49,445 bases of DNA from a virus (taxonomy: Duplodnaviria > Caudoviricetes). The DNA is taken from the IMG/VR virus record IMGVR_UViG_3300006872_000009, positions 1 through 49,445 of that record; one strand, 5' to 3'. The position numbers were made by a program, and so were the translations under genes. Numbering within the stretch: the stretch's first letter is position 1; every line of letters starts with the position of its first letter. This document shows, in pieces, positions 18,786 to 30,527 of this stretch. Below the pieces are notes generated by a model. That model was not told where the DNA came from. It did not search any database and worked only from the letters and a program-made list of their open reading frames with translations.

Positions 18786-19291
18786 CGACTATCTTTTGTC
18801 GTGTGTGTGAGCAGCACTTACCGACGGACAGCTTCTTCTCTGGCCTGATAAAGCCGACCGTTAAACGGCTTCGGTGTCGTCGTTGCACAGCCATCCATAT
18901 CAAGGCATGGAGGCAAAGGAACCCAGCCAAGCAGCAGGCGATCAGGGCTCGTTCTTATGCAAAGAATCTTGCGACACACCTCCGCTGCAGTAAGGAATGG
19001 CGAGCCAAGAATCCTGAACGTGATCGTCTCCTGAGAGCGATACACCAGCGGCGCATCAAGCAATTCACACCACCGTGGGCTGATCGCGCAAAAATTCGCG
19101 CCCTATACCGAGAGGCGCAACGACTGACAAGAGAGACGGGCATCGAGCATCAGGTGGATCACATTTATCCGCTGCGCGGGAAGACTTCGTGCGGGCTGCA
19201 TGTTCACTACAACCTGCAAATTATCACCGGGACCGCGAACCGGAAGAAGTTCAACAATCTCCCGGAGGAGATCGGATGCGTCGTAGCTTAA
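18782..19291 (+). CDS. HNH endonuclease, free-standing
   Basis: TPPWAD...HQVDHIYPLRGKTSCGLHVHYNLQII...NRKKFN; N-terminal CxxC pairs. Confidence 0.9.
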   Translation: MTTIFCRVCEQHLPTDSFFSGLIKPTVKRLRCRRCTAIHIKAWRQRNPAKQQAIRARSYAKNLATHLRCSKEWRAKNPERDRLLRAIHQRRIKQFTPPWADRAKIRALYREAQRLTRETGIEHQVDHIYPLRGKTSCGLHVHYNLQIITGTANRKKFNNLPEEIGCVVA

Positions 19292-20895
19292 TCAGCCTTA
19301 TGGTTATGGCAGCTTTGTCTTTAGGTGTAACTGCCTACGGTAATGAATTTTATACTCATGGCAGCTTCCCCGCTCCCGGCTCCCCCGCCACGTCCGCAGG
19401 CATGCGGGCCGAACTGGATTTAATTTCGGCGGGCTTCGACAAGCTCCCCTCGCTCAGCGGCAACGCCAATAAAGCCGTCATCGTCAATGGCTCAGCGACG
19501 GCCCTCGGGGTCACGACTGGTACCCTGTCGCTCGCTGGCAACTTCGCCATCTCGGGGGCGTTTGCCACCACGCTGACGGTGACGAATACGACGAACGTCA
19601 CGCTACCGACGACGGGCACGCTCGCGACCTTGGCGGGAGCCGAAACGCTCACAAATAAGACGGTCAATCTCACGAGCAACACGCTGACCGGCACCGTGGC
19701 CCAGTTCAATACCGCGCTGTCGGACGGCGACTTTGCCACACTGGCCGGCTCGGAGACGCTGACGAATAAGACGCTGACGGCCCCTATTCTCTCTGGGTCA
19801 GTGACCGGCACCTATACGCTCGCGGGGACGCCTACGATCAGCTCACCGACGGTGAACAGCGAAACCACGACGAATCCCACGATCAATGGCACAGTCAGCG
19901 GCTCCGCCATCCTCAATCCAGCCAACGGCGGGACCGGGAACAGCGGCACGCCCACGAACGGCCAACTCCTCATCGGCAACGGCACGAACTATACCCGAGC
20001 CACCTTGGCGTCGTCCGGGACTGGCACCTCCGTCACCAACGGTGCGGGTTCCATCACGATCAACGCCGAGGGATTCTCGACCGGAGACGTGAAGCTCACG
20101 CTCAAGACCAGCGCGGACACCGGCTGGGTGCTGATGGATGACGGCACGATCGGCAGTGCGACCAGCGGGGCCACGACCAGGGCCAACGCCGACACGCAGA
20201 CGCTATACTCGTTGATCTGGACGAACTGTATTGACCAATGGTGTCCGGTGACGGGTGGACGCGGGGCGAGCGCCTCGGCGGATTTCTCCGCGAATAAGCC
20301 GCTCAGACTCCCAAAAACGCTGGGGCGCGCCTTGGCTGGTTACGGCACAGGGACCGTGCAGGACTCGGGCGTCGACGGAGGCGTTGATACGACCAACGAT
20401 ACCCTCACCGTGCCATCGAACACCGACAAGTGGGTGACGGGCATGGCCGTGACGTTCACGCTCACGTCAGGGACGATCACGGGACTGACGAGCGGCAATA
20501 CCTATTATGTGATTCGCGCTTCATCCACGACCGTCAAACTGGCCTCGAACCTAGCCAACGCGCAGAACGGCGTGGCGATCGATATGACCGCCAAATCGTC
20601 GCCGGTCTGGACGATCACGCATACCTACACGGCGCGAGCGCTGGGCGAAGCGATCGGAGAAGGGCAGCACGCGATGAGTAGCTCCGAATTGCTGTCGCAT
20701 ACGCATACATATACTCAGGCTATCGCTCCAGGTTCGGCAGATGGTGTCAATCCTGCTCCGCCTTACGCATCGACTACCAGCAATTCAGGCAGTACTGGCG
20801 GCAATGCCGCGATGAACATCATGCAGCCGACTCTCTTTCTCAACGTCATGATCAAACTCCATCGTCCCTGGGTGGAGTTGCAGGGGGTGCAGTAG
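19276..20895 (+). CDS. Tail fibre with tail-collar-like C-terminus and signal-peptide-like N-terminus
   Basis: [43 protein letters not shown] repeats; FSTGDVK...[21 protein letters not shown]. Confidence 0.8.
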
Positions 20896-21276
20896 ATGCT
20901 CGACCTCCACAAAGACGCCCAGAACTTCGAGCAGGGCTTCTTCTATCTCCAAGCAGCCCCCGAGCTGGTGAGCAAAGCCACCGCCTTCGGCTTCCGGCGC
21001 ACGGTCTGGAAGATGACAAAGCGGGATGGATCGGACGGCTATTTCACGTCCATCTGGTTCTTCAACCGCATCCAGTTCTATTCCGGTGACTGTAAATGCG
21101 ACGGCACGCGGACGCGGATGTATTGGGCGGGGCAACTCGACGATGGAGCAGGATTTCCATACGCACCAGACCCCACGCAGTACGTCTACACCGATCTCCC
21201 GAAGGAACTCTCGGCGTTGCGCTGGCGGTCAAACGGACCGGGCGAGACGAGTTGGGACAACATGGGAGGCTCGTAG
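20896..21276 (+). CDS. Hypothetical protein
   Basis: 126 aa abutting the fibre stop. Confidence 0.6.
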   Translation: MLDLHKDAQNFEQGFFYLQAAPELVSKATAFGFRRTVWKMTKRDGSDGYFTSIWFFNRIQFYSGDCKCDGTRTRMYWAGQLDDGAGFPYAPDPTQYVYTDLPKELSALRWRSNGPGETSWDNMGGS

Positions 21277-21530
21277 TGGCCGAAATCACCCTCGACGACG
21301 CCACCCGCACGATCGGGGCGGTGATGACGGTCCAAGAATATGCGGTCGTGAAACCGGCCTTGGAAGCCCCCGGCGGGAAGGAAGCCCTGCAGCGGATGTT
21401 TGCCTCGTTCTTAGCGCAGCAGCGACAGGTCCAAGTCGAAGCGGATCGAGCGGCCATCAAGGCGTTTGCGGAGACGGCCCCGGACGGCAAACGCGCCGAG
21501 GTCATGGCGATCATCAACCGAAGGGACTGA
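21276..21530 (+). CDS. Hypothetical helical protein
   Basis: GGAGG RBS, GTG 21276 (MAEITLDDATR...). Confidence 0.6.
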   Translation: MAEITLDDATRTIGAVMTVQEYAVVKPALEAPGGKEALQRMFASFLAQQRQVQVEADRAAIKAFAETAPDGKRAEVMAIINRRD

Positions 21531-28940: not shown

Positions 28941-29200
28941 GACTGGTGCTGCTGCTCGCCGGCTGCGCGACGGTCCACGCCGCCGACCCGGCCAAGGAGC
29001 CGTTGTTCCAGTGCGAGGTGGAGCGGGCCAAGTGGAAAAGCGAGCGGGACACCCTGAACTATCTCGCGACGAGTTTTCTCGATACGCGGACGCAGGTGGA
29101 AAAGATGCTCGCCAACGCGCAGGCGGAAAACGCGGCGCTCCGCGAGCAGATGGAGGCGCTCAAGAAAGACCTCGCGCACGCAAAGGAGAAGAAGCGATGA
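28919..29200 (+). CDS. Lipoprotein-like coiled-coil protein
   Basis: LLLAG-C lipobox (alternatively VHA|A SPI site); heptad C-terminus. Confidence 0.6.
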   Translation: MGHVLRIGLVLLLAGCATVHAADPAKEPLFQCEVERAKWKSERDTLNYLATSFLDTRTQVEKMLANAQAENAALREQMEALKKDLAHAKEKKR

Positions 29201-29898
29201 AACGATTAGCGCTTGCTGGCCTGTTGCTCCTGCTGCCGGCCGGTGCCTGGGCGCAGGTCTCCCCAGGGACGGTCAATGCCAAGCAGTCGGGCACGTGGAC
29301 CGTCACGGCGACCCAAGGCACCGGCACGAACCTGCACATGGTCTGCGACTCCGGCTGCGGCGGGTCGAGCTTCGCCGACAACGCAGCCTTCACGTTCGGG
29401 ACCACGAACATCGGGCCGATGGGGGCCGTGGTGGATGACACCGCGACGAACGCCGTCAGTGAGAACTCCGCCGGCGCTCCCCGGATGAGTGCCCAGCGGA
29501 TTCTGTACGGGAACCTGCGGACGGCCTCCGGGACCGAATTGATCGGCTCGCAGGCCTCGGCGAGTTCCATCCCGGTGGTGATCGCCTCCGATCAAGCCGC
29601 CGTGAAGATCGATCGGAACACCGTCGCCAGCGCGAACAACGACGGGGCCTGCATTTCGGTTACCGGCTCCACCACCTCGGTGCTCGCCTCGTTTGCGAGC
29701 CGGCGAGCGGCCGTGATTCGAGCGGACCCCACCAACACCCAACGGGTCTACATCAAGTTTGGGGCCACGGCGACCACCTCTGACTTCCCGCTCGACGCGG
29801 GCGATTCGTTCATGCTGGGCGGCACGGTGGCTTACACCGGTGCGATTGACGGGATTTCCGCCTCGGGGACACAAAGCGTATGCGTCGCCGAATTCTAA
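29197..29898 (+). CDS. Exported fibre/spike-base-like protein
   Basis: AAGGAG RBS; MKRLALAGLLLLLPAGAWA|Q; SIPVVIASDQ; 4 Cys. Confidence 0.7.
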   Translation: MKRLALAGLLLLLPAGAWAQVSPGTVNAKQSGTWTVTATQGTGTNLHMVCDSGCGGSSFADNAAFTFGTTNIGPMGAVVDDTATNAVSENSAGAPRMSAQRILYGNLRTASGTELIGSQASASSIPVVIASDQAAVKIDRNTVASANNDGACISVTGSTTSVLASFASRRAAVIRADPTNTQRVYIKFGATATTSDFPLDAGDSFMLGGTVAYTGAIDGISASGTQSVCVAEF

Positions 29899-30527
29899 TC
29901 TACGGCACATTTCTGCTGCTGCCGTGGCTGCTGGCGGCCGGGTTCGACTCGGCCCCGCTGATTCAGCTCCAAGAGGAAGGGACCAGCCAAGGGCAGGTCT
30001 CCAAACTCAACTGCGTCGGTTCCGCGGTGACCTGCGCCCGCTCAGGGGTCACGGGGACCATCACCGTCTCGGCCTCGGGCGGTGTGACGCGGGTGACGCA
30101 GACCACCGATGTGGCGACGACGAGCAATGCCGCCTACTCGGCGGTCTCGGGCCTGTCGATCGCCGTCTCGGCGAGCACGAACTACACGATCATGTGCAAT
30201 ATCTTGACCTCGACGGCCGTCGGGACGACCGGGCTGCAGCTGCAAGTGACGGGGCCGACCTCCCCGACGGAAATCACGATCACGCGGCAGTATCACAATA
30301 ACTCCACGACGACCTATACGCCGCTCACGGCCACAGCCTTTAATACGGCCTCGACGGACGACGCGGCGGCCGGCTCCTGTGCCGCGCAACGGTGTCTGAA
30401 TCCCGTCATGATCGTGCTGCGCAACGGTGCGAACGGTGGGACGGTGGCGTTCGCGGTGCAATCGGAAGTGAGCGCTTCGAACGTGACGCTGCATCGCGGA
30501 TCGTATTGCGACTATTCGACGTGGTAA
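29880..30527 (+). CDS. Exported fibre-like protein with beta-sandwich tip
   Basis: MRRRILIYGTFLLLPWLLAA; IQLQEEGT...LNCVGSAVT; GTVAFAVQSEV...TLHRGSY; 6 Cys. Confidence 0.7.
   Translation: MRRRILIYGTFLLLPWLLAAGFDSAPLIQLQEEGTSQGQVSKLNCVGSAVTCARSGVTGTITVSASGGVTRVTQTTDVATTSNAAYSAVSGLSIAVSASTNYTIMCNILTSTAVGTTGLQLQVTGPTSPTEITITRQYHNNSTTTYTPLTATAFNTASTDDAAAGSCAAQRCLNPVMIVLRNGANGGTVAFAVQSEVSASNVTLHRGSYCDYSTW

Follow-up and report, generated by a model that had tools for sequence, protein, structure and literature searches.

Tailed virions are commonly regarded as being complete in the cytoplasm before lysis. The virus record IMGVR_UViG_3300006872_000009 (Duplodnaviria; Caudoviricetes) raises the question of why its tail-fibre gene, at position 19276, and a set of late genes downstream of it begin with secretion-type leaders. 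The window that we analysed is the whole record (49,445 bases, linear, about 80% complete), and judged from its gene set the phage is of the short-tailed (podovirus) type. Genes are referred to by their start positions. Our preferred answer, to which we assign a probability of roughly 0.65, is that the anchored fibre and six cysteine-paired late proteins would be exported by the Sec system, cleaved and folded with disulfides in the periplasm, and would dock onto a fibreless particle at lysis.

A preliminary description of this DNA had listed seven genes with Sec-type signals and had joined them into one tail-fibre module spanning 19276..30527. All seven starts are present in the sequence, as ATG codons at 19276, 21534, 21854, 24151, 24903, 29197 and 29880, most of which overlap or abut the preceding stop. 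Each protein has a hydrophobic 10-mer within its first 16 residues (Kyte-Doolittle score 2.1-3.8), and a second transmembrane segment after the leader was found in none of the seven. For capsid, portal, adaptor and nozzle, which had been said to lack such N-termini, the same score reached only 0.5, 0.8, 1.2 and 1.6, in agreement with that statement. A recount of the cysteines in the mature parts gave the identical numbers of 2, 2, 16, 6, 8, 4 and 6. From the described signal features the hydrophobic core and the small-residue cleavage sites held, while 24903 carries no basic residue in its n-region. Tail-fibre motifs, attributed to the whole set, are found in 19276 and 21854 and were shown for no other member. 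The single module had to be abandoned: the seven genes are not contiguous, and a lysis-like cassette (25992-28637) lies in between. Four further leader-like starts occur at 26771, 27574 (lipoprotein-type), 28023 and 28919. Throughout, leaders were called by a home-made hydrophobicity and cleavage-site rule, which asks for a hydrophobic 9-mer, an n-region without net negative charge and a small residue at both -3 and -1, and which was judged against homologues.

The fibre gene itself (19276..20895, plus strand) encodes a leader (residues 1-22), an anchor domain from residue 23, a Thr-rich shaft, a tail-collar domain with Cys318 and Cys323, a small beta-barrel insert and a His-x-His tip, and matches the tail protein family phrog_8763 (E 2e-7). 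The family of the anchor domain is large, a profile from residue 23 matching 3,130 clusters (50% identity). The 186 homologues that we fetched, being those where the profile matched from its start, were distributed bimodally: 110 start at most 4 residues from the domain, 76 have at least 14 extra residues, and none lies between. The leader rule was passed by 75 of the 76 extended proteins and by 0 of the 110 leaderless ones. Whether homologues keep the signal peptides had been raised in the preliminary description; these 76 do, with divergent sequences. The 67 distinct leaders (18-30 residues) have almost no sequence in common and all end at the domain start, with A, G or S at -1 in 65 of 74 and A or V at -3 in 53 of 74. 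Since the leader ends where the domain starts, cleavage would yield the N-terminus that leaderless orthologues have after their start Met. Full-length leaderless versions of the fibre also exist (P0056, 62% identical; P0183 and L117, 50%), and because the same fibre thus occurs with and without a leader, the anchor family represents a natural experiment.

The gene starts agree with these comparisons. In 27 leader-bearing loci the fibre start overlaps the preceding stop (median 4 nt), and the anchor domain begins a median of 62 bases past the upstream stop, versus 4.5 bases in 98 leaderless loci. Homologues that start downstream at an internal Met, which would have spoken for a misplaced start, did not appear: a start codon near the domain boundary is absent in 22 of the 27 leader-bearing loci, and none of the five present has a ribosome-binding site. 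By these criteria the leader on the anchored fibre is genuine and not a gene-call artefact. Export by the twin-arginine translocation pathway was ruled out for the leader-bearing proteins, the S/T-R-R-x-F-L consensus occurring in 0 of 100 leaders; eight of the 100 have RR somewhere in residues 1-12, and 19276 and 29880 have RR without the consensus. Lipobox-like motifs were found in only 3 of 100 leaders.

By position and homology, 19276 is the virion fibre gene of the phage. In the fetched loci the anchor gene follows either the nozzle or a small inserted gene. Its domain profile aligns with the leaderless post-nozzle genes of Vibrio phage 1.232.O (hhalign 92%) and Escherichia coli phage Bas95 (91%), the latter annotated as 'tail protein'; a direct match of the window's own anchor to any cultured phage was not found. 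By tblastn the collar region of the window finds proteins annotated as tail collar or tail fibre (E 2e-8 for 'tail collar domain protein' of Bordetella phages), and the PF07484 Collar domain is present in 5 of 19 aligned homologues, leaderless members among these, and not in 19276 itself. Exactly one anchor gene is present in the window and in each of the five relatives searched, two of which are complete phage records, such that a leaderless backup fibre was not found in any of these. The anchor domain would bind the tail, to judge from gene position, from the distribution of the family and from T7-like phages such as LME-1. The structural model of the fibre was poor, with a mean predicted local distance difference test (pLDDT) score of 52 and 44-59 in the N-terminal anchor part, and fold searches returned a weak match of the small barrel insert only (best Z 5.9). 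A predicted complex of two adaptors and three anchor domains scored 0.00 with the controls not folded; this result speaks neither for nor against binding.

To assess disulfide formation we counted cysteines in de-replicated proteins that contain any. Leader-bearing proteins without the anchor have an even number in 55 of 66 cases (binomial p 2e-8; five more have zero). The control sets gave even counts in 235 of 535 upstream head and tail genes, in 17 of 47 leaderless fibres and in 27 of 83 genes neighbouring such fibres. Within the family of 21854 the count is even in 108 of the 111 proteins passing the leader rule, over a range from 4 to 20. Among the best 120 homologues of 21854, Cys587 and Cys594 are both present in 17, both missing in 103 and never found singly, while Cys607 and Cys628 are both present in 119 and both missing in one. 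Of 12 leader-bearing homologues, 7 have the whole collar pair of 19276 (Cys318/Cys323) and 5 lack it; none of 3 leaderless ones has it complete. Across these homologues cysteine pairs are plainly gained and lost together.

Leader-bearing fibres are accompanied by further leader-bearing genes. Within 8 kb after the fibre, 45 of 62 genes of at least 200 residues pass the leader rule in 30 distinct leader-bearing loci, versus 12 of 143 in 100 distinct leaderless loci; in a smaller earlier count, the latter passers were by eye spanin-like, holin-like or ejection-protein N-termini. The neighbours in the window all lie on the plus strand. The long fibre-like protein 21854 (21854..24151) has 16 cysteines and, by homologue comparison, a C-terminal tip domain. 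From its best 120 homologues 111 pass the leader rule, and the other nine comprise by eye three with a leader and six that start mid-protein. Seven of 345 anchor proteins, each of them leader-bearing, carry this tip domain fused straight to the anchor: four pass the rule and the other three have clear leaders of 21-25 residues. Among cultured phages the sole match of the tip is gp74 of EBPR siphovirus 2. For 21534, 24151, 24903, 29197 and 29880 no anchor fusion was found among the 345 proteins.

These five are smaller. Gene 21534 (21534..21857) encodes a leader and a small beta-sandwich with Cys51 and Cys102, which gives a 20% alignment with the leaderless 28638; a leaderless phage protein that the clade conserves can be aligned with the beta-sandwich of both 21534 and 29197. 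In 24151 (24151..24906) the leader precedes a beta-rich domain with six cysteines and a short basic C-terminal tag, with 38% homologues in two other leader-bearing loci. The product of 24903 (24903..25853), a leader followed by a jelly roll with eight cysteines, resembles bacterial secreted polysaccharide-lyase-like proteins: a feature-level match of 0.95 (atlas) connects it to polysaccharide-lyase-like bacterial clusters, the Pfam match (PF21294, E 0.009) lies under the cut-off, and the full-length relatives P0122-P0124 and P0128 are all leader-bearing. Gene 29197 (29197..29898) combines a leader, a fibre-like repeat and a C-terminal beta-sandwich with four cysteines, and has homologues in five leader-bearing and no leaderless loci. 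The beta-rich, tip-like product of 29880 (29880..30527) has a leader and six cysteines and shares its N-terminal stretch with two leader-bearing loci. In 24151-25853 and in relatives, exported domains end in short C-terminal tags past a Gly/Pro linker, of a Leu-Leu-Gly-Val-Gly type or a basic, Arg-rich type; these may be docking peptides. The content of exported neighbour genes differs greatly between phages. A Pfam scan of 22 such proteins of relatives returned Kelch, beta-helix, GDSL esterase, LamG, TIG and FN3 domains as well as a nuclease and a PLD-like enzyme, and left 11 without a match at E 0.01.

The route that we propose starts from the leaders that visibly precede the mature domains. 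Export through Sec and removal of the leader by signal peptidase I would very probably follow, and with almost the same confidence we expect disulfides in 21854, 24151, 24903, 29197, 29880 and 21534, as suggested by parity and pairwise co-occurrence. A trimer of 19276 would then probably dock on the adaptor and nozzle after holin action, a step suggested by where the gene lies, by the conservation of its anchor and by the lack of any other anchor gene. That the other six attach to the fibre or the capsid, as branches, tips or vertex spikes, has about even odds, the case being best for 21854. Holin and endolysin would open the compartments and let the periplasmic fibres meet the particles built in the cytoplasm. 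Virion docking has indirect support for 19276 and 21854. From in vitro complementation of T4 and P22, fibres or spikes are known to attach to finished particles outside the cell, which makes late docking physically plausible. As the reason for export we prefer that it may give access to disulfide-dependent sugar-binding or sugar-cutting domains from bacterial secreted proteins, the anchored fibre being exported along with them as their assembly partner. N-glycosylation as the reason is unsupported, the density of sequons being 1.73 with and 1.54 without leader per 100, and that of extended sequons 0.048 versus 0.045.

To follow the history of the leader we used a quick nozzle tree (83 rows, from 110 after 80% de-replication). 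Its 21 leader-bearing rows require 7 changes of leader state, compared with 18.8 for shuffled labels, and at least five of the seven are forced by well-supported branches; the clade of the window comprises 18 rows, 16 of them leader-bearing. The change count alone does not separate gain from loss. Because leaderless fibres are in the majority and are present in cultured outsiders, the leader appears to have been gained repeatedly and sometimes lost. Taking the evidence on a broader scale, we lean slightly towards a morphogenesis that is split by the inner membrane: the head, the tail and the ejection proteins would stay cytoplasmic, while the whole receptor-binding apparatus would be exported, oxidised, pre-assembled in the periplasm and attached at lysis. 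The leader would have come or gone several times in this podovirus family, and its gain would have let phages recruit host-range modules from secreted, disulfide-dependent domains of bacteria.

The host is likely a diderm of the Nitrospirales (Nitrospira-type), and the phage is likely temperate. One leader-bearing relative sits in a metagenome-assembled genome (MAG) of Nitrospiraceae, and the window's capsid family occurs in 3 of 401 genomes of the order of this MAG. At 2127..2175 (plus strand) the window carries the 3' part of a tRNA-Arg(ACG), resembling an attachment (att) core, which was found with at most one mismatch in 40 of 201 genomes of the same order, one of them exact. The comparison covered this order and two control groups only; for Burkholderiales and Magnetococcales, hosts suggested by MAG bins, it occurred in none of 151 and none of 56 genomes, and the tRNA core thus lends these candidates no support. 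The tRNA fragment adjoins a probable repressor gene (1703-2122, minus strand), and a complete tRNA-Met lies at 3240-3314. A complete relative encodes a lysozyme as well as an integrase; the latter did not turn up in the window, which is incomplete. DsbA-like thioredoxins (PF13462) are present in all five candidate host genomes. In the Nitrospirales-order genomes G152, G054, G027, G122 and G174 we observed several DsbA-like proteins each, whereas DsbB gave no match in any of them and VKOR none in most; a non-canonical oxidase may serve DsbA in these genomes. In 800 kb of one candidate host, exported-like proteins avoid cysteine (41 of 123 without any, versus 30 of 330). Together with the slight lean towards even counts given below, this is weak evidence that the candidate host has an oxidising periplasm.

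A number of points weigh against the export and docking of the whole set. The homologues share ancestry, such that the p-values overstate their independence. Anchored fibres show no bias towards even cysteine counts (8 of 16, with four more lacking cysteine), and their cysteine density rises only slightly with the leader (0.42 versus 0.32 per 100). Since the anchored fibre often has no cysteine or a single one, disulfide formation fails to explain its leader; the leader on a fibre so poor in cysteine is best explained by the fibre having to meet its disulfide-bonded partners in the periplasm. In one relative, L045, the leader stands on a fibre with one cysteine and without large exported neighbours, which hints at a further benefit, on speculation that receptor-binding proteins are kept from cytoplasmic sensors. 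Sequence searches against solved structures with anchor, fibre, nozzle and adaptor gave no meaningful relative, and the label 'anchor' hence rests on position and family distribution. A leader in the late region need not mean a virion part, because the nuclease and the PLD-like enzyme of relatives carry leaders too. The host evidence is mixed as well: L137, which is closely related and was binned in the same host order, carries a fibre without leader, which shows that export is not imposed by the host; DsbB (PF02600) was found in 0 of 5 and VKOR (PF07884) in 1 of 5 candidate host genomes; a phage-encoded DsbA-like thioredoxin was found in 0 of 4 phage records; and the exported-like proteins of the candidate host just mentioned have even counts in 50 of 82 cases (p 0.03), a weak signal. 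The interpretation given in the preliminary description, export, periplasmic oxidation and docking at or after lysis, is thus supported in part: the homologue comparison speaks strongly for export and for disulfide pairing, while the missing parity bias of the anchored fibre and the missing canonical DsbA-DsbB pair in the five hosts count against it.

The main rival, which we consider unlikely, gives the exported proteins a split fate: the anchored fibre, perhaps with 21854, would be placed on the virion, and the others would be free in the periplasm or released, stripping capsule or matrix, masking receptors or aiding release. The likeness of 24903 to bacterial secreted polysaccharide-lyase-like proteins, the nuclease and PLD-like enzyme exported by relatives, the absence of anchor fusions for the five smaller proteins and the highly variable exported gene content among phages are all in its favour. 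It agrees less well with the tight start-stop coupling across the late region, with the C-terminal tags, which in our own reading resemble docking peptides, and with the alignment of the 21534/29197 beta-sandwich to a clade-conserved leaderless phage protein. A weaker alternative, which we consider improbable, is that a lysogen or infected cell displays the proteins as adhesins or superinfection blockers, the virion being without such a fibre. Bacteria do export phage-fibre-like trimers, the Bdellovibrio MAT fibres, according to the accessible text of PMC10769870, and signs of a temperate lifestyle (the att-like tRNA core, the integrase in a relative) would suit display. However, 19276 keeps the slot and the N-terminal domain of a virion fibre, there is no second anchor gene in the window or the five relatives, no membrane segment follows the leader, and lipobox-like motifs are rare. 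Between 15500 and 32500 only one promoter-like site was seen, and it lies on the other strand, which is weak evidence in the same direction.

The leader could also act as an uncleaved membrane tether or as a timing device, some of the protein staying in or returning to the cytoplasm and assembling normally. Preproteins with slow export are able to fold in the cytoplasm, and the anchored fibre needs few disulfides. Because small residues are conserved at -1 and -3 right where the domain begins, cysteines pair strictly in the neighbours and an alternative start with a ribosome-binding site is lacking, we regard this as very improbable. Close to refuted, finally, is the idea that the leaders are products of gene calling or chance hydrophobic starts. 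The home-made rule with its false positives on ejection proteins and spanins gives it some ground; against it stand 67 divergent leaders of one architecture and the failure of all 110 leaderless homologues to pass that rule. We retain export, periplasmic folding and docking at lysis as the preferred reading.

The remaining genes of the window follow a familiar layout. Profile or homology matches place the terminase at 6255, an SU10-like portal at 7569 and an N4-gp56-type capsid at 13236. The leaderless SU10-type head-tail adaptor (16024..16713, plus strand; PF24175 SU10_adaptor, E 8e-13) is the presumed cytoplasmic docking site. It is followed by the leaderless nozzle, or head-closure protein (16713..18785, plus strand), assigned by its position and by 30% identity to a 'head-closure protein' of Vibrio phage 1.232.O; to the nearest cultured phages the nozzle identity is only about 30%. 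In one subclade only, a leader-like N-terminus is found on the gene immediately preceding the adaptor (L045 1607-2278; L049 4509-5180; L070 6299-6970). An HNH-type endonuclease (18782..19291, plus strand; phrog_1035, E 4e-14) lies between nozzle and fibre, and HNH-like insertions occur at this place in several relatives (L058 9420-10004; L201 9478-9996; L035 9778-10209). The fibre is followed by a leaderless 126-residue protein (20896..21276, plus strand), also present in two other leader-bearing loci. The lysis-like cassette (25992..28637, plus strand) contains a DUF5675 protein (PF18925, E 9e-25), small membrane proteins recognised by their transmembrane segments and an overlapping, spanin-like pair (27471/27574) with a lipoprotein-type cysteine; by inference holin, endolysin and spanin roles would reside here.

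Next to it, a leaderless 100-residue protein (28638..28940, plus strand) has an aligned family in seven leader-bearing and no leaderless loci. It was modelled as a jelly roll (pLDDT 80); cupins gave the best structural match (Z 9.0) and the PM2 spike P1 reached Z 7.4, both too generic to name the protein; sequence matches to nitrous-oxide reductase were set aside as chance. It overlaps the small leader-bearing coiled-coil protein 28919 (28919..29200, plus strand), to which a leader-bearing gene in six leader-bearing loci is similar by look only. A cassette of such a coiled coil, a small membrane protein, the jelly roll and a leader-bearing fibre occurs in leader-bearing loci only (window 28377-29898; L058 13971-16625; L127 11991-15719; L129 14205-15709; L148 11489-13836; L149 11609-13857), and in relatives the start of its fibre overlaps the jelly-roll gene by 32 nt. 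It could aid assembly, or form the base of a capsid-vertex spike whose partner is exported. The leader-bearing enzymes in the late region of relatives are a staphylococcal-type nuclease (L142 5304-5729) and the PLD-like enzyme (L127 17825-18316). Downstream of the fibre region follow ejection-type proteins, including a lysozyme domain at 34437 and a 3,272-residue protein (36035-45853) with inorganic pyrophosphatase, LPD1 and LPD38 domains, which probably enters the cell with the phage DNA. A GNAT acetyltransferase (31886-32350) among these genes is kept in three leader-bearing and three leaderless loci.

The leader pattern is real and widespread, and it is probably undescribed. A literature search for exported or signal-peptide-bearing fibres of tailed phages, of limited coverage with subscription journals mostly outside and supplements excluded, found no description; a search on Carin-1 found no paper, and the accessible text of a study on nitrifier viruses (PMC11849493) does not mention signal peptides. 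The window contributes a family matched for presence and absence of the leader, statistics on cysteine pairs, a fusion of anchor and tip, and a clue to the host. If the proposed route is true, lysis would be the last assembly step and particles in intact cells would be non-infectious, receptor-binding proteins would be shielded from cytoplasmic defence sensors, and the use of disulfide-dependent adhesin and enzyme domains by phages would be explained. It would also be a caution to annotators who class phage genes with signal peptides as cargo outside the virion. Nitrifiers, the likely hosts, have a poorly known phage biology.

T7-like podophages are among the closest known systems. They share the gene order portal, capsid, adaptor, nozzle, fibre and ejection proteins, and a fibre with an N-terminal attachment domain and a variable C-terminal part. 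The fibres of T7 (gp17) and SU10 dock on adaptor and nozzle. In the T7-like podophage LME-1, likewise, fibre trimers contact both proteins (PMC12407071). The accessible text of that paper does not mention a signal peptide, whereas the fibre of the window starts with a secretion-type leader and has no sequence link to the solved chains. In contrast to podovirus fibres that fold in the cytoplasm without a leader, 19276 has one, and would otherwise work like its family. NVP1232O_16 of Vibrio phage 1.232.O and Bas95_0020 of Escherichia phage HelliStehle_Bas95 occupy the same slot with homologous first 40-66 residues; unlike 19276, they start at the domain and have no cysteine, and the four following Vibrio genes are by eye without leader. 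The filamentous phage protein pIII is a receptor-binding virion protein with signal peptide and disulfides; it is membrane-anchored and built in during extrusion, whereas the proteins considered here lack a membrane anchor and belong to a tailed phage that carries a lysis-like cassette. As far as the accessible text of PMC10769870 describes them, Bdellovibrio MAT fibres are also phage-fibre-like trimers with signal peptides and with disulfides in their tip domains. They are, however, bacterial surface proteins encoded on the chromosome, with their own conserved, beta-rich domain (about 130 residues) after the signal peptide, whereas here a phage fibre N-terminus stands in a virion operon of a virus record. 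Sec-exported endolysins (Lys44 of fOg44, SAR endolysins) illustrate that tailed phages use the host Sec system late, with action triggered by holin, according to the accessible text of PMC6116005; unlike the proteins considered here, they are lysis enzymes and not virion parts. The virion is of a known kind, while the assembly route proposed for it is not.

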